Of a DNA stretch of 64,000 bases, positions 6,001 to 63,875 are shown piece after piece; the first letter of the stretch is position 1; every line of letters begins with the position of its first letter. Below the pieces are notes generated by a model. It was not told the DNA's origin. It saw only the letters and a program-made list of their open reading frames with translations, and made no database searches. Location: contig MU056816.1 of assembly GCA_013239625.1 (NCBI GenBank), forward strand, positions 2,796,773 through 2,860,772, in the 5' to 3' direction. Both the position numbers and the translations under genes were made by a program. The stretch is from Lama guanicoe (taxonomy: Eukaryota).

Positions 6001-7513
6001 GAGCCCCCCACGGTGTCCCTGACACCAGCACCTCTTGTATGGGCCGCCCCTGGGGAGGCACCCCCAGAGTTGCTTTGCCTGGTGTCCCACTTCTACCCCT
6101 CTGACAGCCTGAAGGTGGAGTGGGAGCTCCGGGGAGGTCCAGAGGGCAGCTTTCAGAAGGCCGAGGGGCAGAGGTGGCTGTCCGCCCTGCGCTACCACTC
6201 AGATGGCTCTGTCAGTCTCTCTGCACACCTGCAGCCACCCCCAGTCACCACCAGGCAGCATGGGGCACGCTATGCCTGTCGTGTCCACCACCCTAGCCTG
6301 CCAGCCTTGGGGCGCAGCGCCGAGGTCACCCTGCAGGTGGCAGGTAAGAGCTGGGAGGATGGAGAAGCTGGGGTCTGGTGCCTGGGAATGTAAGACTCAC
6401 TCTTACAGCTTCTCCTTGCCAGGTCTCTCTGGGCCCTCTCTGGAGGATGGCGTAGGCCTCTTCCTGTCTGCCTTTCTCATCCTCGGGCTTGTCAAGGCGC
6501 TGGGCTGGGCTGGTGAGTGTGAACCCCACCTAGACTGGGACCCTTGACTGGCAGACATTCTCTGCCTACTCCCAGAAGCTTCACCCCCATTCCTCTGCCC
6601 TAATACTCCCCCATCCCATCCTTTCTCCATCTCTCTCCACAGCTGCCTACCAGGCCACCTCCAAGGATTCAACAGAGAAGGTAACAACACTCCACCTTCC
6701 TTTATCTTTCCCTTCTCATTTAACCCTTCCTGCCAACTCCTCCCCCACGAGGGAGGCTGCTGGCCTGGTGGGTAGAAACCAGACTTGGAATTCACACAAA
6801 CCTCTGTTAAATCTGGCCACCTTGAACATGCTACACCTCAGCTTTCTTGGATGTAGGGATAAAAAATTGGGGATGGGGGTGTGGGTATAGATCAGTGGTA
6901 GAGCTTGTGCTTGGCATGCACAAGGTCCTGGGTTCAATCCCCAGTACCTTCAAAAAAAAATTAAGTAAAAAAATTAAACAGTAAGTTACTTAGGCAGCAT
7001 TGTCCTACAGAAATATCATGCAAGCCACAGAAGTAAATTTAAGTACATACTCTAGTGGCTGCATTAAAAAGGTAAAAAGATACCTAATATATCCTTACTA
7101 TTATCACTTCGACATGTACTCAGTATAAGAAATTACAGTGTTTTTTCTATCCTAAGTCTTCAAAAGCAGGGATTTATTTTAAACTGTCAGCACACCTCAA
7201 TTTGGAGTAGCCACATTTCAAATGCTCAACAGACACAAGTGGGTGGTGGATTCCCTACTGGACAGCACAGGCTCGGAGGGCTGTTGGTATGATTAGAGAT
7301 AGTGCATCTCCTTTGAAAGATGCAGGAGCAAAACCCCTTGGCACAGCATCCACCAGGCAGAAAACATACAGAAAGTGTTAGCCTCTTTCTTCTGCCACTG
7401 TCTGTGCCTGTGATGTTAATCTGTCTCTGGATTGACCATAAACACTTCACCCTGCTTTCTAAAATCCTGAATTCCTCACCTCCTTTTCACTTCTCTTCCA
7501 GAAAACACAGTGA
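58..7513 (+). CDS. TAPBP: Tapasin (TAP-binding protein), 3' part; 5' exons lie upstream of the window
   Basis: GT-AG exons with matching phases: 58-318 (DPAGALL..CEMSRYVP..QSCPRALDG), 5233-5631 (VLTVLTHTP..WTGNGTFWLP), 6002-6343 (Ig-C1 domain, PELLCLVSHFYP..YACRVHHPSL), 6423-6512 (TM, GLFLSAFLILGLVKALGW), 6643-6680, 7502-7513 (KTQ*). The tail ..STEKKTQ* carries a KKxx motif. Confidence 0.97.
1577..1715. mobile_element. MER5-like hAT-Charlie fragment
   Basis: CAGTAGTTCTCA start and internal AATCAAAATCTCTGGGG; family name from memory. Confidence 0.5.
2357..2445 (+). mobile_element. tRNA-derived SINE (camelid Vic-1-like), short form
   Basis: A box AGCTCAGTGGTAGAG, B box GGGTTCAATCCC, A-rich tail. 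Confidence 0.8.
2625..2985. mobile_element. MaLR (MLT1-like) solo LTR
   Basis: TTATTTTCTCACAGTTCTGGAGGCTAGAAGTC..GATCAAGGTG motif typical of MLT1. Confidence 0.7.
4095..4330. mobile_element. MIR SINE
   Basis: Core motif TATCCCCATGTCACAGATGAAGAAA..GTGACTTGCCCAGGG. Confidence 0.7.
4660..4725 (-). mobile_element. 5'-truncated SINE (tail only)
   Basis: T-run + GGGGAGATAATTAGGTTTG..TTTAATGGAG, matching the tail of the long-form copies. Confidence 0.6.
6875..6960 (+). mobile_element. tRNA-derived SINE, short form
   Basis: A and B boxes plus poly(A). Confidence 0.8.
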
Positions 7514-17229: not shown

Positions 17230-17332
17230 GGGGTGGTAGGTATAGCTCAGTGGTAGAGTGCATGCTTAGCCAGCAGATGTCCTGGGTTCAATCCCCAGTA
17301 CCTCCATTAAAAAAGAAAAAAAGAAAGAAAAA
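17230..17332 (+). mobile_element. tRNA-derived SINE, short form
   Basis: A and B boxes, A tail, imperfect TSD (AATCTGGACCTGAG / AATTTGGACTTGAG). Confidence 0.82.
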
Positions 17333-18510: not shown

Positions 18511-19175
18511 GGCGGGGACGAAAGCCTGCAGGGAATCGGAGAGGGGCACTGGGTCTCACACTGGAAGGTATCGGGGCTCTCTTTCTGGCCTGCAGGAATG
18601 ACAGCCCTCTTGAGAGGCAGTCTCTCGGAGCACAGCAGTTTCTCTTCGTCCGGGATATCAACTCCACCCCGTCTCCAGCGGGTGGCAGGCAAACCGAGAC
18701 CCCCAAAACCCCTCAACGGAACCCCTGGCCTACTCACGTTCTCCCTTCAGTATTGGTGAACCCGGAAGTAAACAACGAATGCTGGGAAAAAACGGCGCCG
18801 GAAGCTGCCTTCCGGCACATGCCGGGAACTGTAGTTCTAACATACTTAATGAGTGGCGTTCTGCTAAAAAGGCTAAACTTGGAAGGCTTTAGGCAAGATG
18901 AGGAAACGAAGCTGGGATAAGAAACTTCATGGTTACGTGGGTCCTGGCTCCGGACTGACTCTCTTTTCTTACTCAGGCATAAGTTGCCTCACGGCTGGGC
19001 GGGTCGGCCCCGCCCCTCAGTGGAGAGAGCGCCCTCATTCAAGATGGCGCCTAGAAGGCTTCAGACCTAGGGCTGCACCGATTGGATGACAACCGGAGGA
19101 CTTCCGGGAGTTTTCAAGCCAACTGTGGGACAGCTGAGAAGAATTTGCACGTGCGTCGTCTTTCGGGTGGGCTAG
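18511..19175. promoter_or_regulatory. PFDN6/WDR46 bidirectional CpG promoter
   Basis: Head-to-head ATGs about 665 bp apart. CCGGAAGT at 18762; ZNF143/THAP11-type ACTACAnnnCCC at 18822-18837 (-); YY1-type AAGATGGCG at 19041; inverted CCAAT near 19081. Confidence 0.85.
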
Positions 19176-32332: not shown

Positions 32333-35300
32333 ATGGCCGCTGCTGCGACCATGGCCGCAGCTGCCCGGGAGCTGGTGCTGCGGACGGGGGCCTCAGATAT
32401 GGAGGAGGAAGAGGGCCCGCTGGTGAGAGCGCAGGGATATTTTTCCTCCAGAGGCTTTTCAGGCCTCCTCACGTCAGAAGGGCCTGGGTTGCATGTAGGC
32501 ACAAGGTTAGGAGCTCGGCTTCTACCGTTGATGCTACCTGGTCTGGCTCTTCATACCCCTCCCTGGGATGGACTGGAGCCCGAGCGGGGACCAGAATGGC
32601 CGAGACTCAGGTTCTGGGGACACAATTTCAGTTAACCTCCGGATGTTTGGGCAGAAGAGAAGCAATGTAGTGTAAAGGTTAAGAACATGGCTTCTGGAGT
32701 CAAACTGCCGGGGTTCTAATTCCAGCTCTGCCACTTAAACTTTGTGTGTCTTTGGGCACATTAACTAGCTTTTTTGTGCCAGTACTTTCCATACCTATGA
32801 AGTGAAGAAAATGAGACCTACTATATAGGGTGTCGGCTAGGAGTAAATGACTTAGTATATGTAAGTTGGCACCTGACATGCAGGTAAACACTGTTAGCTG
32901 ACATTTCTGGAAAGGCTAGGGCTCCCCAGAGGAATTGTGATAGAACACTTAAGGTAGCAGGAGTCTGGGGATCCTAAATTCAACTGCAATTTCAGCTCTG
33001 TTCTCTGCATCTCCTAATTTTCCTCATTTGGTCACTTCGCCCCTTGGTGGGTTGCTTGTCTCCTTGTCATATTCCCTACACATCAGCCCCAACTAGTAGA
33101 CTGGGTACCATATGAGACTTATGGGATTTTTTTGACTCAGTACCTACCTATGACCCTAGTAAAAGTCCCTCTCCCCAACTTAAAGCATTGGGGTTTATCC
33201 CATTATATTTTGTTCTCCCCCTTTCTTTCCTATAACCTGCCCCTCTCCAGGGGGGTGGTCCGGGTCTTCAGGAGCCATTGCAACTTGGAGAGTTGGACAT
33301 CACCTCTGATGAATTCATCCTGGATGAAGTGGATGGTAAGTGTTGGCACTGGGTGGATGCAATACTTATAATCTGAGAGGCATAGGGGCCAGAAGTGATA
33401 AAGCAGGGATTGGTGTGTAGATGTTTAATGTTGGGAGAGGGAGCTGTGGAGCCAGCTGAACCCTTACGATAAACTTCTGTTTCCAGTTCACATTCAGGCA
33501 AATCTGGAGGATGAGTTAGTAAAGGAAGCTCTTAAAACGGTGAGGCTTTCCACTATACTAATCTGCCCCTCCACCTACCCTCTCCTCAAAGAAAAGAAAA
33601 CAGTCTCTTGCTCTTAAAATGTCACCCTGTCTTACTTTCTAGTCCTTTGTTGATTCTGTCCTGGTGTTCCTTCGCTGACTCTCTCCTGCTGACCTGTAAT
33701 GTTTATGTTCTCCCAGGGCGTGGATCTCCGGCACTATTCAAAGCAGGTTGAACTGGAGCTACAACAGATTGAGCAGAAATCCATTCGGGATTGTATCCTC
33801 TAGCAGAGGAAAAGGGTGGTGTTATTAAGATGGAGATTTTATGGGGTGTGGTGCTGATGTCATGCTGGGGCTTCCATCTTCTTTCTGAGGTTTCTGTCAG
33901 CTCGGGGAGAAATTGGAAAGGGCCTGCAAATCTGAGGATCTCTGTTTTCATGATGACACTCCTTGACTTTTGTGGGTCAGATATCCAAGAGAGTGAGAAC
34001 ATAGCTTCTCTGCACAACCAGATCACAGCCTGCGATGCTGTCCTTGAGGTTAGTAACCATGACTTGTGACCCCAATAACCCTGAACCAGATCATGGTCGC
34101 TAGTACCATTCTTTAGGTCATTAGCCTTAGGTGGGGACAGTTAGAGCCACTTTCAGGGTGACCTAAGCGGCTTTTTTGTTCTTGCTGTCATAACTAATGT
34201 TATTTGCTAGTGACCTTTGGGGTACATCTTCCCTTATGACCTGCTGCCCTCATAGACTGATAGATACTGGAGACTACCAAGAAACTTGCGTGGCCCACTC
34301 ATCCCCTGCCACCCCAATGGCAATTCAGCAACACTTCTGCCTTCCCCCCAGCGCATGGAGCAGATGTTGGGAGCTTTTCAGAGTGATCTCAGCTCCATCA
34401 GCTCTGAGATCCGGACACTGCAGGAACAGTCAGGCGCCATGAATATTCGGCTTCGAAACCGCCAGGCTGTCCGGGGGAAACTGGGGGAGCTTGTCGATGG
34501 CCTAGTGGTGCCCTCTGCTCTTGTCGCGTGAGTCACCAATCTGAAGGGTCATAATGTCTATAGTAAGTAGATGGGCTGGAGTGACCTACGCTGCTTACCC
34601 CATGGGCCTCCTGGCTCCCAATCATCAAGTGCCTTCCAAAAACCGATCAGTGGATTGACAACCTTTATAACCTTGACCTGTGCTTTAGGCATCAAAGATG
34701 AGGGATCATCCAGGGTCAGGCATGTAGTGAGGGGGTCCAAGGCTTACATGGGCAGTAGGGATGTGTATTTGTCCAGGAACAGAAAACTTTTTCTGTATGT
34801 TCCAACTACATGATACAGTGTAAGAATGGAGAAGAGACGGGCTGGATGTAAGGGGTATGTTTTAAAGTCTAGGGATATCTGGGTCTCTCTCCTAACCCAT
34901 CCCATCCCTCCCTGCTACCCAGGGCAATTCTGGAGGCACCAGTGACAGAGCCCAGGTTCCTGGAGCAGCTGCAGGAACTGGATGCCAAGGCAGCTGCAGT
35001 CCGAGAGCAGGAAGCTAGAGGGACGGCGGCCTGTGCAGACGTCAGAGGCGTTCTTGACCGGCTCCGGGTCAAGGTCGGGGGTGGGGGTGGATACTCCTGA
35101 GACCACAAGAACCAGCCTCCCTGAGATGTACACCCCTGGATTTCCCTGGCAGAGCTCATTCTCACATCTCTGGGTTTCCCTGAAAGTCATTGTTTTCTTT
35201 AATGGAGATACTGGGGATTGAACCTAGAACCTCGTGCATGCTAAGCATGTGCTCTGCCACCGAGCTATACCCTCCCCACCTTAAGAAATATTGAAGAGAT

Positions 35301-38903: not shown

Positions 38904-41900
38904 AGGGAGTGGCAGTTAGTGGACTCAGATAAACAGAATTGGCATTACTATAACTTGGGTCACAACATGCTGTCATTATTGGGCTATTTTTATTTTCCTT
39001 TGTAATTTTTTTAGTGATGTAGACATCCATGAACCCACCACACACTTTGGCAACAACCAACATCGATGTATGAATTCCTCTTCACCCCATCTCCCTGCCT
39101 CTTTCACAGAGGGCACCTATGGGCCTAAATCTTGTGTTTCTTATGCCCTTGCTTTTAAAAATACAGGTATAGGTATGCTGAAACAACAATTAGTTTGGTT
39201 TTTGAGTGTCATAAAAACAGAATCACAGGATTATTTCATGCATAATTTTTCTAGTGTCATGTCGTTGCGTATGGTTGTAGCTCATTCTTTTTCACTACTG
39301 TATACTGTCACGTAATGTGAATATAACATGTTCTCCTGTAAGTGGTCATTTGTATTATTTCCAGTTTCTTGCTACCATGAGCATTATTTTATGAAGAATT
39401 CTGTCTTTGAGCACACAAAGGTGGTAGGTAAATTTTATCAAAGCTCTCTTGGAAGTAGGAGTAGGCTTGCTGCATATGGGATATGCCAGTGTTCTACTTT
39501 ATGAGACAATGTCAAATTGTTTTCCTAAGTGGTTGAACCAATTTATTCCTTATCTCATTGAGTCATATTTTCTCCACCACATGGTATATCAGACTATCTT
39601 TGTCATTCTGATAGGTATCCCATTGGGATCTTAATTTGCACTTTCCTGATTACTAATATAATTGAGCGTCATTTCAAATGTTAAGTAGCCATACACATTT
39701 TTCTTTTCTGTAAAACATCTGTTATAGTATTTGACCTTTTAAAAATTGGGTTGTTATGTTTTTCTTTTTGATTTGTAAGAGTTCTTAATATATTTTATAT
39801 TTATCTACATAACCTTTTTGTTGATTATATAGATTGCAGATACATTTCCGTATGTGTTTTATCTTTTTGCTTTTTTTATGTTATCTTTAGGTGAACAGAA
39901 ATTTCTAAGTGTAATATGATTGAATTTATTAATCTCTATTTTTATTGTCTTAAGAAATCTCTGATTACCTGAGTCAGAAAAACATTATACTATGTTTTGG
40001 AGTATGTTTGTAGTCTTAATATTGTAGAATTTTGCTTTTTACTTTTAAGTACTTTTGGAATTTACCTAAATATGCCTAGAATTTATTTTTGTGTATGATG
40101 TATGATAGGGATCTAACTCAGTTTTTTCTATTTGGATAATGATGGGTCCTGAACAATTTATAGGAAGCCCCTTTCTTACCCTGCTTGGTCGGCAGTCCTG
40201 CCTCTGTCACATAGTAAAACTCCACAAACGTGTATGTCTTGCCTCTATTCTGCCTATTCTGTTGATCAGTTTGTCTACCCTGCTGTACAGTTTTAATTAT
40301 GCTTCTAGGGCAAATTCTCCTGCCTTCTTTTTCATCATTTTCTTGAGTATTATTGGCCTCTTGATTTTTCATGTGAATTTTATGATCCGCTTATAAGTTT
40401 TCACATTTAAAAAAAGCCCATTAAGGATTTTGGTTGGAATTGCATTGGTTAATTTGAAAGAATTGACACTTTATGATATTGAAACTTCCCGTCCATGAAC
40501 ATGGGCTTCCTCTCCATCTTTTAAAAATTTTATTTTTGCGGGGGCAGGTAGTTAGGTTTGCTTATTTATTTGTTTTTAGAGGAGATACTAGGGATCGAAC
40601 CCAGGACGTCATGCGCGCTAAGCATGTGCTCTACCACTTGNNNNNNNNNNNNNNNNNNNNNNNNNNNNNNNNNNNNNNNNNNNNNNNNNNNNNNNNNNNN
40701 NNNNNNNNNNNNNNNNNNNNNNNNNNNNNNNNNNNNNNNNNNNNNNNNNNNNNNNNNNNNNNNNNNNNNNNNNNNNNNNNNNNNNNNNNNNNNNNNNNNN
40801 NNNNNNNNNNNNNNNNNNNNNNNNNNNNNNNNNNNNNNNNNNAGTTATTCTGTAATGTCTTTTAAGAACCTTTTATACTTTTCAGTGCAGAGACATTGCA
40901 AATCTTTTGTTAGAGTTGTTCCTGGCTAGATGTACTATGTAGATTTAGTCCTACGAGGAATAAGTAAATCCTTCCTTATCCTTTGCCTTTGATTTCTATG
41001 TCTTTAATCCCTTTCTGTTCTGGCCAGGACCTCTGTGACAGAGTTGAATAGTGCAATAAAGGGTAACAGTGAGAACCCTTATCCTGTTGCTGAGTTTAAA
41101 AGAAATACTTTAATCATTTTACCATTAACAGTAATGTGGCTACAGGGTTTTTTGGTAGATGCCCTTTATCAGGTTTGGAAAATTCCTTTTAATCCTTCAT
41201 GTGCTAGGAGTTATTATTGTGGTTATTCTACTTGGAATAAATCTACCTTTATTGAGGAATAATTACTAGGAATAATACTAGGAATTACTGGGAATAATGA
41301 CTACATTTTTTTCTAATTGTTTGGACTTTCTACTCTATTCTTTTAGAATCTGTCCTTTAAATAAATTGTTGTTCCTTAAATATTAAAAGAAATTTACTTG
41401 TTTGAACTGGTATACAGAAATGCTGTTGATTTTTGTATATTGATTATGTAGCCAGCCACCTTCCTAAGCTATTTCTAATAATGTTTCTGTGTGCTTCTTT
41501 GTAGGCATTCATCATTTACAAATTGTGACAATTGCAGTTCTTCCTTTCTGACCCTTATGTCTTTAATTTATTATTACTGCACTGAACAGTACCTCCAGTA
41601 CAAAGCTGAATAGTTGAATAGAAGTGGTGATAGTAAGAACCCTTTTCTCTTCCTAGTTTTAAAAGGAATTCTTCTATCATTTCCTCTTAAGAGTAATGTT
41701 GTTGTAGGTTTTTTACAGATCTCTTTTATCAGGTGAAGAAAATTCCTTTCACTCCTTAGGATGCCAAGAGTTATTATTTTTTAAAATTATAATTTTCTTT
41801 TTAAAATTAATATTTTTAAAAATATAAGTGAGTATTGAATTTTTAATCAAGAATGTATGCTTTTTCTGTAATTGGTGAGGTAATCATAGTCCATTTAAAA

Positions 41901-44900
41901 ATCTATTATGTGGTATATAACATTTATAGATTTTGCAGTGTTAAACCATTCTGGATTTGGTCTAATTTGTTTAGGATTTTGCTTCTCTGTACATAGGTGA
42001 GATTGGTCTGTGATTTTCTTTTCTTCTACTGTCCTCATGTGGTTTGGGTACCAAAGTCATACTGGATTTATAGAAGGAGGTGAAAAGGAAGTTTTCCTTC
42101 TTCTGAAAGATTTTAAGATTGAAACAATCTCTTCTTGAAGATTTCCTAGAACTTGCCAGCAGAAGCATTCAGGAAGTTTCAAAACTATGAAATTCCCTCT
42201 AAATACTGCTTTTATTGAATTCTATAAGTTTGAATATGTAACATTTTTATTATCATTCAGTTCTAAGAATTTTTATATTTTAATTGTATCTTCTTCAATC
42301 TGTGAGATTTTGAGTGTTTTAAAATTTCCAAAAGCAGTTTTCTTACTTCTCTTTTTTGTTATTAATGTCTAACTTAATTGCATTGTGAATGGAGAATGTG
42401 GTTTTTTGGTACTGAACATTTGAAATTTGAAAAATGTTTGAAATTTGTTTAGATTTGCTTGTGGCCTAGTACATGATCAGCTTTTGTAAATGTTCCATGT
42501 GTGTTTGAGAACATGGGTTTTTTTTTAAATTTTCAGGTGTGGAAGTCAGGCTCTTTAATTGTATTGATCACATTATCTAAAATATTTACTAATTTTTTGT
42601 TTACTATCAATAGTTGAGAGAGATGTTTTGATATTCATAAATTTATCATTATTCACAGCAGTTTTATCAGATTTTGCTTTATACGGTTTCAGCTTATTTT
42701 ATCTAAATTCTTAAAAGTTTAGAATTATTAGATCTTGCTAGTGACTTGAAGAATTTGTCACTATATGACACATCTTAGCCCTAATAATTTTGTCTTGAAA
42801 CCTATTATATCTGATATTAACAGCTCTGCCAGTTTTATTTTGGTAATATTTGCCTGTTTGTTTCTTTTTTTTTTTTCCTTTCAGCCTTTCTATGTTTTCA
42901 CTTTTTAAGTCTTTTAAAAATGGCATATAGCTGGAATTTTTGAAAAAATCCAATTGGATTATCTCTGCCCTTTGATTTATTTTTTAAATTCATTTATGTT
43001 TATTATGATTAATGTTACATTGGGACTTTTTCCTACCATCTTTAGTTTCTTTTTTGTCTTGTGTCTTTTGTGCTTCTCGCCTTTGTTTTTCTTACTATTT
43101 ATTTTTTTCCTCCTAATTTAGATTTTGTATTCCATTCTTTTAGAACTTGGCCTTTAAATTTCACCTTGCATATTTAGCTTAACATCTAAACTTAATATTT
43201 AACCCTTATCTCAAACAATATGTAGATTTTAAAGCATTTAAAATGTTTTAATGCGCCAATCGCCCCTCCCCCTTCTGTCTTCCATGCTAATTATTGGCCA
43301 GTATTTTATTTCTGTCTTCCTTTTAATTGTTGCTATCTTGTAGTGATACCTTCCATTTGGCCTTCCCTGCATGTTTCCCTGTTTATTTGCCCACCATTCC
43401 TTTTTAGAACTCAGATTATCTTTCGGGGATCATTTTCCTTCTTCCTAAAATAGCTCTTTTAGAAATTCCTTTATGAAAGTTTGTTGGTAGTAAACCTTGT
43501 TTTTGTTTTTACATAAATGTATTTCACCTTTGTTAGGAAAGAATAGTTTTGCTGGCTTACTGTCAAATTCTAAGCAGTTATTTTCTCTCAACATTTAGAA
43601 GGTTTTCCACTGTTAGCTTAAATTGTTGCAGTGAAAAAGTCTACTGTTGTTCTAATTTTTGTTCCTTTGAAGCAGTCTCTTCTCTCTGACTGCTCTTTAA
43701 GTTCTCCTCTGTTTTCTTTGGTATTCTAAAGTTTTACTGCAATATGTCTAGATGTGGGTTTCTCTTTATTTCTTTAAGTTGATACCTTGTTGGTTTCCTG
43801 GGTCTTTGAATTTAGTTTTTTCATTAATTTGGGGGAAATTCACAGCCAGCATCTTTTTAAATATTGCTTTTCCTTCATTCTTTCTTCGCTTCTGTGCTCT
43901 GATTAGTTGTAGGTTAAACTTTCATTCTGTTCTCTCTTTTTAGTAAATAAACATGTAATTAGATGAGAAAGGAAGCTGTTGTCCTCGCCCGCACAGTTAG
44001 GTGACCGGAGAGAATGTCAGCTCTGCCTTCTGAAGTGGAATTCTCTAGACTCTCTGATCCCATGAAGATGTGCTTAAACCAGTGGCCTTTGATAATAGCT
44101 GGAAGATGCCATCCACCTAGGTCCGCACTGGCACCTCTTTGAGGTTCTCATGAGAGACTCAGTCTTAGCATCCCAGCTCGAGGCTGGCATCAGACTCAGC
44201 TTCCCGATAGCAGAATTGCATGGCCATCTACCTTCTGATAGCCCTGTGTCTCCCAGTTGTCTCCTTCTCTGGTTCCAGCCCTCTGCTCCCAGGCCAATTT
44301 TTTTTTAATGAAATTAAGAAAATTTTTTATGAGGAGGGTAATCTTTGGAGATTTCCCCAACCTCTTGTGAGACTAGCAGTGTCTTAAAGTATATCACCTT
44401 TCCAGCATTTAGCTGTTCCATGATGGGAATGTTGTAAGGACCTAGTTGTTAATGATGACAGAATTGGGAAAGTCCGCTGACACCAGAAAACTCAACTCTG
44501 TATGTGTGTGTGTTTCTACAGGAATTCATTGAAGAGTTGCTGTCTCCCCCTTTTGGGGGTTTGGTGGCATTTGTGAAGGAAGCTGAGGCTTTGATTGAGC
44601 GTGGACAAGCTGAACGACTTCGAGGGGAAGAAGGTAGGAGGGTGGTGTGGTAGTGGTGGGGTCAGTGGAAAGGTGAGCAGAAAAGAAAAATTTGAGGATG
44701 CAGATTACATGGGAGGGTGTAGAGCAGGAAAGAGTAGGTGGGGAGAACACTAGAAAAGAGGGGATGCCTGATGAGTACGCCTGTGCCTTGGGGAGGACTT
44801 GGAGGGATCAAATATCACTTAGCCATAATCTCTTTCTTCCTGTTGTCAGCCCGGGTTACTCAGCTGATCCGTGGCTTTGGTAGTTCCTGGAAATCATCGG

Positions 44901-45956: not shown

Positions 45957-46699
45957 TATTTAATATGACATAACACTCTTCTCCCATTACCTTTCTCCTT
46001 CCTCCTGGGACCTTCAAGTAGCCCCATCTCTGCTCCAGGGTCACCTTTGCTCTCTACTTCCTGGGCCTACATCCCTTCTGGTGGGTGTCCAGAAAATAGG
46101 GGCACACAGTAACCTCTAACCTCTAGCTGCTTCAGGCCAAAAGAGGTGGTGGCATTGGTTTTAGGGTTGGTTCTGTTTCATGAGTAACCCACCTGCTGGA
46201 GGAAAGTAGCCCCTGGTTAAAGTGGCAGGTGCATCAAGGGCTGGGAACATGGCTATGCAGCCTCAGGCACTGTCCTAAAGGCTACCTTCGCTCCCTGATA
46301 CCAGCTCTCCATGCCTCCTGCCTCCTCAAGCTGACCCTGGGACGGCCTCCTCTCCTTCAGTGTCAGCTCCCAGTTCCTCTAGTTGTGGTTGTCACAGCCC
46401 CTTGCTGGAGGGCTGTAGCATCCACACCACTGGGGCAGGAGTAGGCCAGGTTCGCAATATGACCATCTTACCCATGTCTGTTATTAACTTGGCGCCTTCC
46501 TGCTGCCGCTGCCCTTATACCTCATTTGAACTGACTAGACTGGAGAGACGTGGGGGCGCCTATAAGTCCTTACGGGGAAGGCCTGGGCAGTCAGGGGAAA
46601 ATGGTAATTTGGAGATGTTTACTACACCCCTATGGCCTAATCATTCCTTCCCAGCCTCCAGCGAGTGGGGGAAGGAGAGCTGTTTCTTCTCCTAGCTTA

Positions 46700-47300
46700 G
46701 GGCTTCTGGATGCAGGCCCAGCCTGCCCACGGAGGCCCAGAGAATAAAGGTACAAAAGGGCGCCGCGTGTGGTCGGAGAGGCCAGCGCATCGCGATGCGG
46801 GGCTGGAGCAGTTTTGGCCGGTGGGCTCTGCCGATTGGCTGCCACATGGAGAGGGCGTGACAGGGCCACTGTAGCCGCCTTCTCCCGCTCCCGCCTTTTT
46901 TTAGGTTCCGCCCCATCTCCGAGAGCAGCGTTCCGATGGGCTTTGGGAACTCTGTCTCTGCGCTTCAGCCCCGCGGCCAGTCAGAAGGGCGGGGGAGGGT
47001 GGTAAAGATGTTGGAGGTGGAGAGCGGCTCCTGATTGGCTCAGATGCCTCAGGGGCAGAACCAGGACGGTGTCCTTAACCGACCTCACCCCAGGTCACCG
47101 CCACGTTCCCCAGCCTCTTCATTCTTCATGGTTTCCCCTGCCTGACTGCCCTAGATATTGCCTGAGGCCTGCCCCTTAATAGGTAGTGGTGTGCGGGGGT
47201 TTGGGGAATCCGAACCTCACCCTGGGCACCGGCCCCAGGAATCCTCTGTCCTTCCACCTTCCTTTCCCTTTCCTGGCGCACGTACCTTCTAACCTCACCC
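46700..47300. promoter_or_regulatory. Orphan CpG island downstream of VPS52 (possible antisense lncRNA promoter)
   Basis: CpG-rich; two GATTGGCT CCAAT boxes (near 46833 and 47033); GC boxes; no adjacent coding exon found. Confidence 0.6.
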
Positions 47301-49270: not shown

Positions 49271-49405
49271 GGGGCATTTATAGCTCAGTGGTAGGCTGCA
49301 TGTTTAGCACGCAGAAGGTCCTGGGTTCAATCCCCAGTACCTCCATTTAAACAAACAAACAAATAAACAAACCTAATTACCTCCCCCCAAAAAGAAAAAA
49401 AAAAT
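49271..49405 (+). mobile_element. tRNA-derived SINE, long form
   Basis: A and B boxes, (AAAC)n-CTAATTACCTCCCC tail, TSD GATCTGTGA. Confidence 0.82.
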
Positions 49406-49689
49406 TTTTGAAAGAGATCTGTGAATGAGGATAGGGAAAAATTATACTTTATTTTCTCCAACTTCAAACTGAAATTTAGTATTTCTTCCAAGGCAGTAAG
49501 AGGCTGCATTTTCTGTAGAGGATTTTAAAATTGTACTAAAATCGACTTTTTATTTTTACCATGCACCAGCAATTCAGTAACACGCCTCCCCCTCGTACAA
49601 CCCCCTCCCACTTCGCCTTGCTTGGTGTATCACTGCACACAGGAGTTTAACCATATTCAGTTCACATACACACGTAGCCTTTTGAGACC

Positions 49690-50860
49690 CCCCCACCCCT
49701 TTTCCACTCAACTCTCACTTTCTTTTGAGGTCTCCTCAACCTGATAGCCTGTAATCCCATCAATGACTTGATGGCTCCCAAACCACCTTCCATGGATGAT
49801 TTGAATCTAACAATCAGCTTCCTCTGCATTCCTCAAGGACATAGAGTCCACACCAGCTTTGTGCCTATCAAAGAAAAAGAGCTTCCTACTTTGTCTGAAC
49901 TTGGAACGTTCTACTCAAGGGTCTTTGATTTCATTCAGCACCAATGGGTCATCCACTAATAAGATAAAATATATTTTTGATGTGACGACTCACTCATGGT
50001 ACCTTCCCTGTGGCCCATCTCTCCTTTCAGGTGTCCAGTCCAATTGTTTACTTTGCAGAAACAGCTTCTTCTCATAGACTTTGTACTTATTATTCTTTTT
50101 TGAGGCATCGTATTCCTCATTTAGCTGAAACTTTGCCACTTTGACCTCTAATTTCTAGCTTCTAATTTCATCTTCATCAAAAAGTTTTAATGCAAGATCT
50201 GAAGATCCCTCTTCAAATAACAGCAAAGCCCATCTCCTTTAAGATTTCTTTATGTTTGTAAAACTTGACCTTAAATTCTTCTGAGGATCTCCCATAATAA
50301 CGCAGACTTTTTTTTTAATAACGCAGACTTTTGATGTGAGCTGTATAAATTCATCCACTGTAATGTCTGAAGGCAAACCGGACATATAATACCTTTGTAT
50401 TTCTATCTTTGTCAACATGAAACTATCTTGTTTCTTCCTTTTATCTCCTCTCTCTTTGGGATCAGTGGGTTTGGTGTTTGTCTTTGCAGAAGTTTCTCTG
50501 CATCCCTAGTATTGACGTCTTGTACTTTTTCCATAAAGCTAGACACGCTATCATTAGAAAAGCCATAATTGGCTTGATAGCATAGCAATGAAACCTTCTG
50601 TGGTCTTGGGGAATCAAGCCTTCTCATCCAGATTCCATGCGTAGGCAGTGTCCCCAGGCTGCTGCCCGAAAGAGTCCATTTTTCTACCGGGATCTTCTCT
50701 ATTCTTGGAGTCTCAATACATTCCTGCATTTGCAACTGCTCATCAAACTTCTCATTCCCATCCCAGGGGTTGCTACTCGGGTTTCCTATAGGGCAGGGTC
50801 CAGGTGAGCGAAGAGGCTGCTCTGCCGGGCTTGGGAGCCACCACCGAGTGTATCTGAGGC
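49690..50860 (-). pseudogene. Processed HTATSF1 (Tat-SF1) pseudogene covering part of the 5'UTR and both RRM regions; 3' part missing
   Basis: Intronless minus-strand translation gives DGNEKFDEQLQMQE, YQANYGFSND, SGLPSDITVDEFIQL, LKGDGLCCYLKR, DDPLVLNEIK, FDRH and YQVEETS, matching Tat-SF1. The start codon is lost (CCG near 50780) and there are many stops and frameshifts. Confidence 0.9.
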
Positions 50861-57980: not shown

Positions 57981-58184
57981 AAAGTCAAAGGAGAAGGTGG
58001 AGGGGGCCGGAATGAAGGCACAACTGTGGAGGTGGACAATGCCAGGAAATATGGTGGGAGGAATGGTGTAGGAAATGATACATGGCACTCCTGGGCTGCG
58101 GCTGCTGGAGGGACAATCATGGCCTCAATTCATCCTAAAATCCTAAAATAAGTACCCTCTTGTCCCAGATCCTGGCGCATATGC

Positions 58185-58950
58185 ATCAATTCAACCAATA
58201 TGTAAATGCAATATTTACAGTGTTCAGGCCCAGGTCCAAAGCAAGAGTTTGCATCTGCTGTCATGGCCTCTGCCATCAGGGAGCTTACATTCTATGGGGA
58301 GCCAGACATCAAATAATCCCCAATGGACGTAGACCTGCGACCCTACCAAGTGCCTCCAAGGAAAAGGGCACCTTGGTGTGGGCGCTCAGAAGAGGGGAAT
58401 TTGACGCGAAAGGAAGGTCTGGGTACCTTCCCTCAGGATGTGGTAAAGATCTGAAGAACAAAGACGAGCTAACTTAAAAGAAAAATGGAAGAAGGAGCCA
58501 TTCAGGAGGAGGGCCCAGCCTACACAAAGGCTCTCTGCAGTGCGGGAAGCAGCGGTGGCAGAAGTGGAGCACTGGGAAAGTGATGAGGGGGAGAGAGAGG
58601 TGGGGGGTGAGGCTGGAGAGGCCAGTGGGGCCACATCTTACAGGGCCTTAGAAACCAGGTTAAGGACCTGGGTCTCTAACCTAAGGTCAGTGGGAAACCA
58701 CTGAATGTGTTTCAGCAGGGTAACTGAAACAATCAGGTTTACATTTCAAAAGGATTCTCTGACTCAGGTGTGCTGCTTGAGTTAGAGAAGTCCTTTCCCA
58801 ACCTTGGCAGCTACCGCAGTGATTCAAAGAGCTGGATTGTCCAGGTGGGGGCTGGACCAGTGAGGTGGAGGGATGGAGAAGACTGGACAGACCTGGGAGA
58901 TATTATAGTGGATACACTTGATAGGACTTGACACTAGATTCAATTATGAG
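58185..58950 (-). mobile_element. LINE-2 3' fragment
   Basis: GGAGCTTACATTCTATGGGG and GGGAAACCACTGAATG..CAGGTTTACATTTCAAAAGGAT are L2-like motifs. Confidence 0.6.
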
Positions 58951-59849
58951 GTACTCACCATGAACTCCCGAGATCAAATCCTTCAAAGGCAGGCACCAAA
59001 TCACAAACCTGATTGTAATACCCAGGTCCTAGAACAGTTCCTGACACGTGGTAGACTCAATACATATTTCCTGAAAGGATGAAACTGACCAGGCCTCCCA
59101 TGTGATACTTTCATCTCTAAGGTTCTTTAATTCCTTCCTGCTGGTGGCAATGATCAGCCTCTCTGATACCTCATAGAGAGAAATCTGCCAAGTTCTCAAG
59201 AGCATGCTTTGGGGGAAGTTAATTCAAGAACTAAGGTCTGCCTTATCCTTTAACATGAACAGTAGCAGTAAATTTACTGCAGGAGTTGCTCAAGGGAGTA
59301 ACTCCCGCAGCAGAACCTTCTACAAAAATGAAAGATGACAATGCCCTCCTCACGGCCAGGCTGGGCCCAAGGGTGCCAATCTGGAGGGGATGCTCCATAG
59401 GCCCCCCTGCTGACTCTTGTTCAAAACCAGTTTCCCAGCACATGAAGAAGACATTAAGCAAGCAATCTCGTAGAAGAAGGGCAAATGCTAGGAAGTGCTT
59501 GTAGCAGCAACTCAGGACCTTGACAGCACTGGGGAAGATGTAAACGGAAGAAACGAGTTCCCCTGCGGATGTTTGTTCCTAGGATATTTCTAGGTTTTTC
59601 TGAGGTTTTTGTTTGTTTGTTTGCTTGTTTGTTTTTTGTCTATCTTCTCCTGCACAGCACAGCCCTGTTCTACATTCTCCACATCCAGAATCTTCCACTT
59701 TCTCCTCCAACCTCCCCTGGCTTCTTCCTCTGGTCTCCATCTCCTCCATTTCCCTGCCTTCTACTTGGATACATGCCTCTGCCTGTTTCCATCTTTCAGT
59801 AAGAGGTCCCAGTGCCGCTGGAAAGAGCAGCCTCCTTCTGGGCTCTATT

Positions 59850-61440
59850 CCTAGAGTGAAGTGCAGTGAAGGTCATAGAAAACCCTGAGTCAGGGCCAGA
59901 AGTGGGCACAGGAAGATGGCCTCATATGATGGGGTGCTGGGTGTACCTTTAGCACTGGATTCGAGAAGCGCCCAGCAGCCTCTGGGCAAAGTGATGGGGT
60001 TGGGTGGGATCAGTGTGCGACTAGGATTTGATGGTGGGGGTTGTCACAGAGATCTCTGGGGATTCAGTTATCATTTTAAAATAATCCTGTGACGAAAATT
60101 CCAGTGAATCGGATCCATCCGTGATGGTGGCATGTCCCAGACAGCCTGGTTAGACTTCTCAGATGGAGGACAGGAGATTGGAAGTAGAAATTCCTTTCTG
60201 AGAAACAGGAAAAGCTCTTTTCCTTGGGAATTAGATTTTGGATCAGGAGTGAGATGGGCCTGCTATTTCAGCTTTGAGTAGGTCCAGGTGAGACGCTCTG
60301 ATCACCCAACGTGGTTGTGCTGAAAGCTGCTCTGGCTGGGTGGGTTGAGGGGGGAGCTGTGCTCCATTATGCCCCCCACAGAAGAGGCAGTCACTCCGCT
60401 GTGGAGGGAGTCTGTGACCAGGGCTGCCCCTCTGCCTTCCTGGAGTGTTGGGTTGGGGAGGGCACTGCCACAGGGGCCTTGACTTGGCCTCAGTCCCCCT
60501 CCCTCCTCGCTGTGTTCATCCCTGTCCTCCCCAGTGAGTGTAGACTGGCTGTCAAGGCAGATGGGTGCTTGGAGCGAAGCCACGGCCACAGAGGCCACAG
60601 CAATAGGGCCTGTCACCTGTGTGAGAGTGCAGGGACAGAGTCAGGTGGGCCCTTCGCTGAAGCACTTCCCACCTTGCGGGCAGGAAAAGGGCAACTCATT
60701 CAAGTGGACCGGGCTGTGCTGGGAAGAGGAAGCTCCACATTCCATGTAGGACAAAGGTTTTGTGGTGGGGGCTGGGGCCACTGGTAGGGGAGGTGAGGAA
60801 GGGTCAGTGTGACAGCCGAGGGGTCAAGGGTGCCACAGTAGATGGGGAGCTGGAGGTCTGTTCTGCCTTGTCCTCCTCCTCCTCTTCCTTTGCTCCCAGC
60901 CTGTGGGGGGAGGGGGAAGAAGGTGAGCACAGCCAGGAGGGGGGTAGGCAGAGAGACTGAGGTGGAGGGGCAGGCCCCTCCCCCACTGAAAGAGTGACCC
61001 CCTCCCTTTCCTCCTCACCTCCCCACCCCCTGTCCCCGCGGTGGGGAAGCCCAGGGCACAACTTTCCTGTGAGCAGTTTGCCAGGGTTTTGAGGGCTGCC
61101 AGGCAACATGAGGGCCCTCAGAGATAGTCCTCACCTGGGCAGGGGTCTCCACAGGCTTCTGTGGCCCTGGGCTCCAGGGCTCAGCTTCTGCCCACATAAC
61201 CTGCTGTGGTTTAGGGACTGAGAAGCCTGAGGGAGATAAAATGAGGGGGAGAGTACGGGCGAGAGAGGCTCCCCTCCTTTCCTCCAGCCGCCTCAAACCC
61301 CGCCTCCAACTTCTTCCCCTCCCCCCTGAGGCTACCAGTGACGCCCTGGACCCCGAGGCCTGGCACCCCTCCTGCAGGGGGCACGTGCCCTTCATCCTCT
61401 AAGGATCAGGGTATCTACTGCAGTGGTTCTGGGCCTCTGC
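59850..61440 (-). pseudogene. Unprocessed KRAB-C2H2 zinc-finger pseudogene (probable counterpart of human ZNF70P1)
   Basis: KRAB-B-like exon 61226-61135 (GFSVPKPQQVMWAEAEPWSP) with cag and gtgag ends. Acceptor at 60900. Decayed fingers KPLSYMECGAS, PFSCPQGGKCFS and AHLTLSLHSHTGDRPYCCGLCGRGFAPSTHL* (linker at 60603-60623). Weaker finger remnants near 59900-60040. Confidence 0.8.
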
Positions 61441-61859
61441 GCACGGAGGACTTGTTACAATACAACTGCTGGCCTCACCTCCAGTTTCTCATGCACAGTG
61501 GCTTGGTTTGTAAGTGGTAGGGCAAAGATCTGGACCCCAACCTTTCCCCACCTTGCTCCTTTGGGTTCTTCTTCTACTTATATCTTGCCCCTCAACAAAA
61601 TAGTCACATTCCCTTTTGTCTACTTTGTGTCTCTTGCTCTGCCAGACCCATATATGTAGGCTTAACTGACAGAGGCTGAAGGACTTGGGGAACTAACCCA
61701 GGGGAGCTCCACCCTACCCCAGCACCTCCTTCTGCCTGCATTGTTCGGAAGGAGAATGCCTGGTCTGGTCGGGTAGTTTTTTTTCTTTGTTGTGTGTAGG
61801 AGAGACTTACCTAGAGCAACAGCTCTGTATGTCACTTACATGGTATCACCTAAATAAAC

Positions 61860-63010
61860 AGGCATGCCTGCGAAGTTGACCGTCGCGAGGGCAGAGGCGG
61901 GCAACAGGGCACTCGCAGCAGAGAGGGACGGGAGAAGTGTGATAAGTGGAGCGGTCGGGACGGTGGGTCGGAGGTGTCAAGTGGGGACTAAAGAGGGACC
62001 GCGGGGCCCTAGGAGGAGAGAGACAGGGGACCAGGGACCGCAGGAGGTTCCAGAGTGAAGCAAGAGGGAGGGATGGGGGGGGGACTGGCAGAAGAGGCTG
62101 ATGGGTCAGGTAGCGCTGGCGAGAACGTGGAGAGTGAGGGGGTGACGCTTCCGCAGCCCCCAGAACCAGAAGAGAAGCCAGGTTCACTCAATTCTCTTCG
62201 GCTTCCACCTTGGTGTCTCCCCCGACTCCTCCCCAGCTGTTTCTTTCCCTTGAAACTCCAGAAGCAATGCCCACCTTCCTCCCACCCTCACATCTTGGGA
62301 GCGTCACCCCTCTGGATACCTAGGGTTGGAGGGAAGGGGAGCCAGGATCAGGGCTGGGGAGGCGGGGCTAAACAGGGGGGTCCTTCAAGGGTGAAGTGGG
62401 TGTTGTCTATTTTTGCAGGGCAGGAGGTCTCGGGGTGAATGCAGGTGACCGGGTCTGCAGAGCTTGCAGGGGCGGGAGGGTGCTCCCTGCGTCCACAGTA
62501 CCGAGAATACTAGGCGCGAGGGAAACAAACGAGAAATGCCAGGCGTGGCCTGGGGTGCCCCCGGGCCGGAGGCTGACTCCTCCGCCAGGAGGGCAGAGAC
62601 GCAATGATTGAGTCGCAGGGATTTGGGGTGCTTCGAGGTGGGGGGGCACGAAAGGCAACGGAAACAGGAAGTGAGGGACTGAAGGGGGGGCGCGGGAGCG
62701 AGCGCCAGTCCCTCTCGGAGAGGCGATTCCTCCCCGACCCCCGCCCTGCTCGGGACGCGGCGCGCAGCCAGGGGCCCCAGACCCCCAGGCCGGCCTGCGG
62801 AACTCGAGGCCGGGAGGCAGCGATGGGTTTACTGGACGCCCCCAGCCCTCTGCACTCAAGTCACTGCTGGGACAAGCACAGAACTACAAGTCCCGGGCGG
62901 CCCTCCCTCCACTGGACCCCGCGGCTCGGCGGCACCGGCTCGCGCACTCCTGGGAACTGTAGTTCCCGGTCCTGCCCGCCTTCTTCGGGAGGTTTCCCAG
63001 GGGGGACCGA
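61860..63010. promoter_or_regulatory. CpG island between the RING1 3' end and the KRAB-ZNF pseudogene
   Basis: Dense CpG; two ZNF143-type ACTACAnnnCCC motifs (62883-62894 +, 62952-62963 -); ACAGGAAGTG near 62664; minus-strand donor AG|GTAAGT at 61811/61810. Confidence 0.75.
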
Positions 63011-63773
63011 GATGTCGCCAAGCTCTCCCACCTTACCACCTCTTTTCTTAACCTGTTTTAGAAACCAGCTTCTCACAAGGATGAGGAATTAATCCCCTTT
63101 CAAGCATCACAGGCCTGTCACGTCTACAAGCACGTCTCAGTAACTCTCCTGCTTTCCCTGAGATTTCAGCCGGGGCTATTCACGTTATAGGGGACAAGTC
63201 TGGGATTTGCCTTCACAGTTCTCCGCTTTCATCCTGTCTCATTCAGCTTCAAAGATGTTCCTTCTTATTTTCGAACGCATTTGATTTGGAGGTTCAGGAA
63301 AATGGGATTTACACATCACGAATAACCTCTGACATTTCTCCTCCATTTCCAAGGCTGATTCTACAAGATTTCTATGGCTCCTTCCCGGATCTTTATTTTT
63401 CTCCCTCTCATTCTAGTACACCCCTGATAAAAAGACACAGAACCGCAGGTTTCAAAGAGGAAAAAAAGCAAATTTGTTGTTGTTGGTCGGAGGACATGAA
63501 GAGGAGGGTTCTTCACTTCACCCTCCCCAACATCTGGTGTAGATGGGAGGTTGGGGGCAATAGAAAAGGCAGTAGATGGGGGCGCACACCCCACTCTGTA
63601 CAATATAGAAGAATCTGATATAGATACTTTGTATAAAAGCCACTTGTCCTCATTTGTGTCCTCTTGCTGGCTGGCTGGGTTGGGGGGGCACTGGGGGACA
63701 AAAAAGCTGGGGTCATGGGCCAGGACACAGGGACACCCCATAGTCCCCATCCTCTGGCTGTCCCCTTGTGGGG

Positions 63774-63875
63774 TCACTTTGGATCCTTGGTGGGGGCATA
63801 GCAGAGCTCCAGTGGTCGGGACACCTTCCAGAACTTCTCATTCACCAGCTCCAGGGTCAGCGAGCCATTCAATGT
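63774..63875 (-). CDS. RING1: RING1 (RING1A, Polycomb PRC1 E3 ligase), last coding exon only
   Basis: Acceptor ttcctctgtag, then [33 protein letters not shown], the RING1 C-terminus. Absent from the ORF track. A minus-strand AATAAA lies at 63392-63397. Confidence 0.93.

Follow-up and report, generated by a model that had tools for sequence, protein, structure and literature searches.

The 64,000-nucleotide stretch of Lama guanicoe DNA analysed here, hereafter the window (G000:C8461:2796773-2860772; contig MU056816.1), was taken from the 2.05-Gb assembly G000, and searches of that assembly score the best candidates alone. On the minus strand, directly behind RING1 and head to tail with it, lies the fossil of a KRAB zinc-finger protein (KRAB-ZFP) gene with three coding exons. 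With high confidence, this locus is an old KRAB-ZFP pseudogene that decayed in place and whose CpG island has survived. Its features, in window positions and in the order in which the minus strand reads, are as follows.

63450 to 63875, minus strand: last exon and 3′ untranslated region of RING1, with the RAWUL domain and poly(A) addition at 63450 (context).
62346 to 63140, no strand: CpG island of 795 bp (observed/expected CpG ratio, o/e, 0.65; GC 0.64), the presumed ancestral promoter.
62950 to 62963, minus strand: THAP11/ZNF143 (TBS/SBS2-core) motif, an exact match to ACTACANNTCCCA.
62883 to 62896, plus strand: second TBS/SBS2-core motif, facing the first, with one mismatch to TBS.
61721 to 62158, no strand: CpG-rich shoulder (o/e 0.64) upstream of and over KRAB-A, with a candidate acceptor of presumed role before 62008.
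61811 to 61880, minus strand: KRAB-A remnant, with 10 N-terminal codons, a 16-codon deletion, an RDVM-type block containing TAA, and a final A-L-G at a phase-1 donor.
61227 to 61810, minus strand: KRAB-A/KRAB-B intron, 584 nucleotides (nt), GT-AG.
61135 to 61226, minus strand: KRAB-B exon, 92 nt, G-x4-K-P-x4-W..E-x-W, ending in phase 0 rather than phase 1.
60901 to 61134, minus strand: intron before the finger exon, 234 nt, GT-AG, collinear in the protein frames P0152, P0153 and P0155 described below.
60520 to 60900, minus strand: last exon, a linker with TGA at 60826-60824 followed by three ruined C2H2 fingers.
60748-60704, 60682-60621 and 60599-about 60534, minus strand: fingers 1 to 3, with a frameshift near 60656 and TGA at 60554-60552.

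The layout is that of a KRAB C2H2 gene in its ancestral state, in which KRAB-A ends at a phase-1 donor, KRAB-B occupies a separate exon behind an AG, and tandem C2H2 fingers joined by TGEKPY-type linkers share one last exon. Both introns are located at the canonical KRAB positions and all four splice sites are still consensus. An initial annotation, made from the letters of this DNA, had listed a consensus donor at 61810, a KRAB-B-like exon at 61226-61135 with intact splice sites, an acceptor at 60900, fingers with an HTGDRPY linker, and RING1 as the neighbour. Each was recovered: the donor reads TAG/GTAAGT with 61810 as the first intron base, the 92-nt exon is flanked by CAG/ and /GTGAG, the acceptor and the linker lie where described, and a RAWUL fragment of RING1 on the minus strand was identified directly upstream of the fossil, on its 5′ side, at 63777-63875 (Pfam E 5e-7).

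The first KRAB exon had been sought in the wrong place. The genome itself supplied the 24 KRAB-A exons used to build position matrices for three KRAB-A blocks, 21 of them through a Pfam search and 3 from a gene cluster on contig C8810 (see below). Near 61335, where a KRAB-A-like end had been proposed, the three blocks come out at no better than ranks 838, 782 and 469 among about 128,000 positions, and this candidate was rejected on the weak ranks at 61300-61480 as against those at 61880-61811. Upstream of the 61810 donor the same blocks rank 8, 24 and 8, in frame and in order, and the donor-anchored composite score of 13.1 is the first of 6427 GT sites (the next scores -16.0), a value reached in 0 of 500 second-order Markov nulls modelled on the region. 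The "consensus donor" is thus the KRAB-A donor, since the remnant ends there. The box reads V-N-F-A-G-M-P-V-Y-L, lacks the next 16 codons, resumes as G-D-T-M-stop-V-T-Y and ends with A-L-G in phase 1. Whole-exon KRAB-A nhmmer profiles, whose match is split by the deletion, detected nothing in 61-63 kb at E<=10.

For KRAB-B, the segment 61240-61147 is the top nhmmer match in the window with a DNA profile of 13 exons (E 8e-4), and it reaches E 7e-6 when two C8810 exons alone form the profile; by blastn, the region is 66% identical to a C8810 gene over 135 nt (E 1e-6). A profile search had been suggested as a check in the initial annotation, and it gave weak matches for the finger part, where Pfam zf-H2C2_2 matched the finger frames with E values of 0.005, 0.009 and 0.0002, all of them scoring short of the curated cut-off, and was negative for the KRAB part, where PF01352 gave no match.

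The coding sequence is ruined throughout. Four lesions that had been named earlier are present: Cys to Tyr at 60748, Cys to Gly at 60673, a -1 shift after KCFS, which leaves 35 rather than 36 nt between the second Cys and the His position of finger 2, and the TGA at 60554-60552. Further damage was found beyond these, namely two more in-frame stops (TAA at 61838-61836 and TGA at 60826-60824, making three in all), the 48-nt deletion within KRAB-A, a first finger 18 nt short, a missing first His in finger 2, and a length of 92 nt that puts the KRAB-B exon out of phase. Neither an open frame nor an intact KRAB box with a full set of zinc ligands is left. No protein can be made from the fossil, because KRAB-A has lost its central 16 codons and contains a stop, and none of the fingers combines all its zinc ligands with the proper spacing. 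In a related species a further 1-bp deletion is found at 60632 (sequencing run X7, with a matching loose end in run X1).

The proposal that an intron-containing gene was lost in place, rather than copied here through RNA, is borne out by two GT-AG introns, a single copy and no close parent. Both halves of the fossil DNA gave a single match in the assembly; the finger peptide shows only 39-60% identity to 56 other finger loci (E<=0.001); and 58.0-63.5 kb contains one A-run of >=7, within an intron, and no poly(A) tail. The two introns, the missing close parent and the missing tail together argue that this is not a retrocopy: the locus is not intronless, carries no poly(A) and has no parent elsewhere, as a processed pseudogene would, and a functional parent is absent from the genome among the best candidates scored, as in a unitary pseudogene. 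The retrocopy reading was ruled out by the intron layout. That the locus might be a processed retrocopy, or that KRAB-like words came together here by chance, could draw on the sub-cut-off Pfam scores and the unmatched PF01352, and is nevertheless extremely improbable, given two introns at canonical positions, three independent modules that are correctly ordered and lie on the right strand, the 0 of 500 nulls in the KRAB-A test, the lack of a tail and an intron conserved in another mammal.

The initial annotation had further supposed that some lineages retain an intact orthologue. None appeared in four protein searches, a weak negative since the queries were single broken frames. Word searches returned 1 sea-urchin finger protein among 1529 candidates, 0 of 325, and 25 matches among 7981, of which P0031 and P0155 alone derive from the locus; phmmer, run with one broken frame against 1.84 billion representative proteins, gave, among the best 150 of 495 matches, 149 multi-stretch finger proteins (8 of them inspected) and P0031. 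The KRAB-B peptide found itself and one weak, stop-ridden match in the assembly, and nothing useful in PDB. Orthologous DNA was likewise not found in Joint Genome Institute (JGI) metagenome contigs, where none of 373 pattern stretches could be confirmed and a second search gave 0 matches.

The nearest living relatives are three intact KRAB genes on contig C8810 at 8.32-8.35 Mb, which we take to be ZNF688, ZNF764 and ZNF689. The KRAB-A remnant agrees with each of the three in 9 of 18 residues, as against <=7 of 18 for 21 other exons. A looser KRAB-B pattern (K-P-x4-W) has 9 matches genome-wide, of which the fossil and two C8810 exons are KRAB-B-like and the other 6 are not. The fossil shares with this cluster the KRAB-A words F-A-x-x-x-V-Y and ..T-Y..A-L-G, the K-P-x4-W of KRAB-B and a GC-rich CpG-island start; it differs in having about 1 kb between the motifs and KRAB-A, a KRAB-B core two residues shorter and three fingers only, whereas the living genes are intact, carry ATG and KRAB-A in one exon and have no TBS motif. 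From these residues the fossil would fairly likely be of the ZNF688/ZNF764/ZNF689 type. The cluster itself is compact (L058-L062), with one more, 10-finger gene beside the three; the 90 kb around it yielded no KRAB-A of this type beyond the three, and the human ZNF688-type cluster is presumably larger.

Such relatives on another contig, together with the failure of the four broken-frame searches to find an intact orthologue, would also be expected if the locus were an old unprocessed duplicate from a ZNF688-type cluster, dead on arrival and never working here. This is quite improbable: DNA identity to the C8810 genes is just ~60-66% in the best-matching blocks, the intron lengths differ (584 nt as against 155 and 310 nt), and so do the promoter motifs, which argues for a long independent life.

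The loss itself can be placed relative to a species split. P0031, its cluster mates P0152 and P0153, and P0155 are machine-called, spurious open frames, P0031 being the only long single-stretch match among the best 150 of 495 in the phmmer search. The P0031 cluster and P0155 are collinear with the window over the KRAB-B exon, the intron and the fingers as far as finger 3, and so derive from orthologous DNA of other mammals. One ungapped diagonal of 56 codons passes through the finger-2 shift, so that the -1 shift and the non-His codon are common to both lineages; the KRAB-B donor is at phase 0 in both, as compared with the phase-preserving 114-nt exon of a living paralogue. Residue identity is 20/29 in the intron, 16/23 in the true finger frame and 22/33 after the shift (38/56 for the exon in total), values that match ~82-85% DNA identity in simulation. 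Intron and exon have thus diverged to the same degree, as expected if both decayed neutrally after the split. The common lesions and this equality suggest that the fossil likely lost its reading frame before the lineage of L. guanicoe split from another mammalian family.

Upstream of the dead exons, the CpG island lies where the initial annotation had placed it. It starts ~310 bp past the RING1 poly(A) site and is single copy in the assembly. Its core (62450-63050) has an o/e of 0.72, as compared with 0.73-0.75 for the promoters of RGL2, B3GALT4 and RPS18/VPS52 and 0.23 for intergenic DNA. The two ZNF143-type motifs also proved real: ACTACANNTCCCRG occurs three times in the window (62883+, 62963- and 18835-) against 0.02 expected, and in 0 of 100 shuffles. 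The third core motif, at 18822-18835 on the minus strand, is located in another CpG island at 18.5-19.2 kb, which we take to be the PFDN6/WDR46 bidirectional promoter. In the pertinent passage of one study, the motif core is described as a THAP11 site within the ZNF143 SBS2 motif, and ZNF143 sites as enriched at the promoters of KRAB genes and non-coding RNAs (PMC3627581). By sequence, the island thus combines the CpG content and the motifs of an active promoter.

The coding part has fared differently: the finger array has a CpG o/e of 0.28 (0.15-0.28 across the finger exon), as against 0.63-0.74 in four living C8810 arrays. Retention of CpG beside a CpG-depleted finger exon points to hypomethylation of the island in the germline, where, as an orphan island, it likely remained free of methylation during the decay of the coding CpGs. 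Its upkeep would probably be due to THAP11/ZNF143-type and CpG-binding factors, or to self-maintenance of the CpG island, with no need for the product of the gene. Few differences from related species were listed, and the CpG transitions among them (1/8 in the island core, 2/14 and 3/10 in the flanks) are too few to use.

Since its CpG content resembles that of the neighbouring live promoters, the island may still have a regulatory role. Selection could keep it, independently of the dead gene, if it acts on RING1 or on the VPS52/RPS18 side as an enhancer, boundary or termination element, as its start ~310 bp past the poly(A) site, its two facing ZNF143/THAP11 motifs and the survival of its CpGs while the coding sequence decayed over tens of millions of years might suggest. 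We consider such selection unlikely, since conservation is not in excess (island contigs differ by 1.9-2.9% and non-island contigs by 2.1-3.7%, a comparison of low power), and CpG islands can persist without function.

RNA evidence over 58001-63550 comes from contigs of runs X1, X3, X5 and X7 (4 of 24 listed, from four studies), all from related species and ~96-98% alike; three of the four runs are only guessed to be RNA, and the contigs carry neither strand nor start information, leave out rare splice forms and may include DNA. Six runs of raw reads under the closest species label were not used; their library labels suggest targeted or amplicon data. The poly(A) site of RING1 was located by poly(T) loose ends at 63450 in X1 and X5, where an X5 contig has a depth of 4386. 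Upstream of this site, which is used in related species, an AACAAA-type hexamer stands alone in this assembly (63450-63480, minus strand), and the canonical AATAAA, at 63397, is downstream of the site and altered in X1 and X5. Across 59.1-63.4 kb the contig depth is 2-14, and an X5 contig of depth 14 (62738-63459) covers the 720 bases that lead from the poly(A) site into the island. No cover was found at 58001-59127 in any of the four runs; neither this nor the missing cover over the island in X3 and X7 is taken as proof either way.

The suggestion that the promoter persists as a spliced non-coding transcript unit found no support, with 0 splice joints in 24 contigs from the four runs, though rare spliced forms would be lost from such contigs. 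Three of the four splice boundaries are crossed unspliced, the 61811 donor by two contigs (X1 and X3) and the 61135 donor and 60900 acceptor by one X3 contig; the 61226 acceptor has no contig cover. Junctions at the fossil splice sites, which would mark a spliced pseudogene-derived long non-coding RNA, were therefore not seen in contigs that may lack rare forms. Of the "apparently live promoter" of the initial annotation, the island, the motifs and the splice signals stand as sequence, and neither initiation nor splicing was seen in these contigs.

We propose instead that the sparse unspliced RNA over the island is likely run-on from RING1 that decays with distance: the island lies inside the expected termination zone of RING1, and a weak poly(A) signal would favour run-on. 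An island still active as a promoter, making low-level non-coding RNA that is spliced in, for example, testis or left unspliced, is possible but doubtful. Its CpG content equals that of neighbouring live promoters, it bears two TBS/SBS2 motifs with a third copy in another CpG island at 18.8 kb, and all four splice sites are consensus despite the decayed coding sequence. X3 and X7 cover sequence downstream of the island core and none over it, a gap that initiation inside the island could explain and that filters or GC drop-out could also cause. The enrichment of ZNF143 sites at KRAB-gene and non-coding RNA promoters (PMC3627581) would also fit, as would two mouse non-coding genes likened to the locus by region alone, namely AA388235, given in a passage of one report as lying between Rgl2 and H2-K1 (PMC2976683), and BC051537, given in another as lying on chr17 (PMC5701091). 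Against such activity, the fossil introns show 0 joints and three boundaries crossed unspliced, the contig ends in the island vary among runs (62646, 62426, 62376, 62738), and the depth is ~0.3% of that at the RING1 3′ end in X5. At ~83% identity, moreover, four short splice signals can survive by chance, and one passage reports that the zinc-finger pseudogene which humans have in this region is missing from gorilla (PMC3626023).

Taken as a whole, the reading of the locus as a broken KRAB-ZFP gene behind RING1 that died early and is now crossed by run-on RNA is probable, and several observations weigh against it. Pfam KRAB (PF01352) matched 0 of 6 frames over 61.0-63.1 kb, and the 24-residue KRAB-A remnant gave no match either; the gapped KRAB-A matrix test was devised after inspection of the sequence, with the null given equal freedom; and the KRAB-B nhmmer match falls to E 2.5 when the 11 non-C8810 exons alone are used. 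The subfamily evidence from KRAB-B is partly circular, as a related motif had served to find the C8810 genes, and the comparison rests on just 24 KRAB-A exons and a remnant too short for a tree. The TBS motif occurs 0 times in the 90 kb around the living C8810 relatives, so that the island is tied to the dead gene by position only. The common lesions come from protein frames rather than DNA alignments. As to the RNA, the contigs have a depth of 2-14, come from related species without strand or starts, and may contain DNA; none spans the poly(A) site by >=31 bases on each side (30 and 10 at most); and X3 and X7, which cover parts of 61.5-62.4 kb, have no contig at 62.43-63.55 kb.

The surroundings of the fossil are those of the extended major histocompatibility complex (MHC) class II region, a run of whose genes spans the window. 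B3GALT4 was confirmed by Pfam, and TAPBP, RGL2 and VPS52 were recognised by eye in the translations under what we take to be their names; the RING-finger exons of RING1 are found at ~65.7-65.9 kb, outside the window. The order B3GALT4-RPS18-VPS52-RING1, in a table of the bat MHC (PMC5437515), is matched here. Between VPS52 and the KRAB fossil, at 49687-50585 on the minus strand, lies an intronless HTATSF1 (Tat-SF1) retrocopy with stops and frameshifts (E 3e-65 to the human protein in PDB). Human HTATSF1P presumably occupies the corresponding position, and the insertion may therefore predate the split of the human lineage from this one. The retrocopy supports synteny with the human region, as a matter of position and not of a sequence test of orthology, and it could act as a neutral clock. 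In one passage of a comparison with opossum, HTATSF1P is given among human MHC loci missing from that species, and ZNF314P is not in the absence list as given there (PMC1351924).

Several smaller features were recorded on the VPS52 side and elsewhere in the window. A CpG-rich patch at 46600-47119 (o/e 0.60), past the recognised C-terminal exon of VPS52, matches no Pfam family, and six-frame Pfam scans of 46.0-59.8 kb yielded 0 families in 12 frames. An AT-rich block at 39001-44000 (GC 0.28-0.33) in the VPS52 span, with a run of N at 40641-40842, is probably a long interspersed element (LINE) fragment. Four Rfam tRNA matches were found (2362-2433, 6881-6952, 17236-17306 and 35203-35274); the one inspected has an A-tail and looks like a short tRNA-derived short interspersed element (SINE). 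Similar repeats at 49279, 54526, 56424 and 57838 have copies in 6-12 other loci.

The fossil is probably the counterpart of human ZNF314P/ZNF70P1. We take ZNF314P to be the old name of ZNF70P1, located next to RING1. The two are likened by position: both lie in the same region, with the HTATSF1 retrocopy in the corresponding interval. In the relevant passage of one study ZNF314P is a zinc-finger pseudogene of the class II region that is absent from gorilla (PMC3626023). No published account of the KRAB exons, introns or island of this locus, or of ZNF70P1, was found in the literature. Unitary pseudogenes with retained promoters, such as MGAT4EP and Pbcas4 in the text of one source (PMC8381491), offer a comparison: the fossil was likewise disabled in place, has no parent and keeps promoter-like sequence, and it is a candidate only for that type, a functional orthologue not having been found in the four broken-frame searches, nor a transcript of its own in the contigs of the four runs.

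A more far-reaching scenario would combine these elements. In it, a KRAB-ZFP gene of the ZNF688 type, linked to the MHC, would have died in placentals tens of millions of years ago and survived intact in a basal lineage; it would have left a selected THAP11/ZNF143 promoter that still fires non-coding RNA or bounds RING1 termination, and from which the non-coding genes next to mouse H2-K derive. We regard this scenario as improbable.

The locus is an ordinary old pseudogene. A little-studied zinc-finger pseudogene of the MHC is thereby reclassified as the in-place loss of a full KRAB gene; its death would be placed before at least one split between mammalian families, and its CpG island would have persisted for tens of millions of years after the gene. 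Were the island both selected and active, it would provide, beside the Polycomb gene RING1 and in the interval into which rodent class I genes have inserted, a clean test case for the survival of a promoter after the death of its gene.

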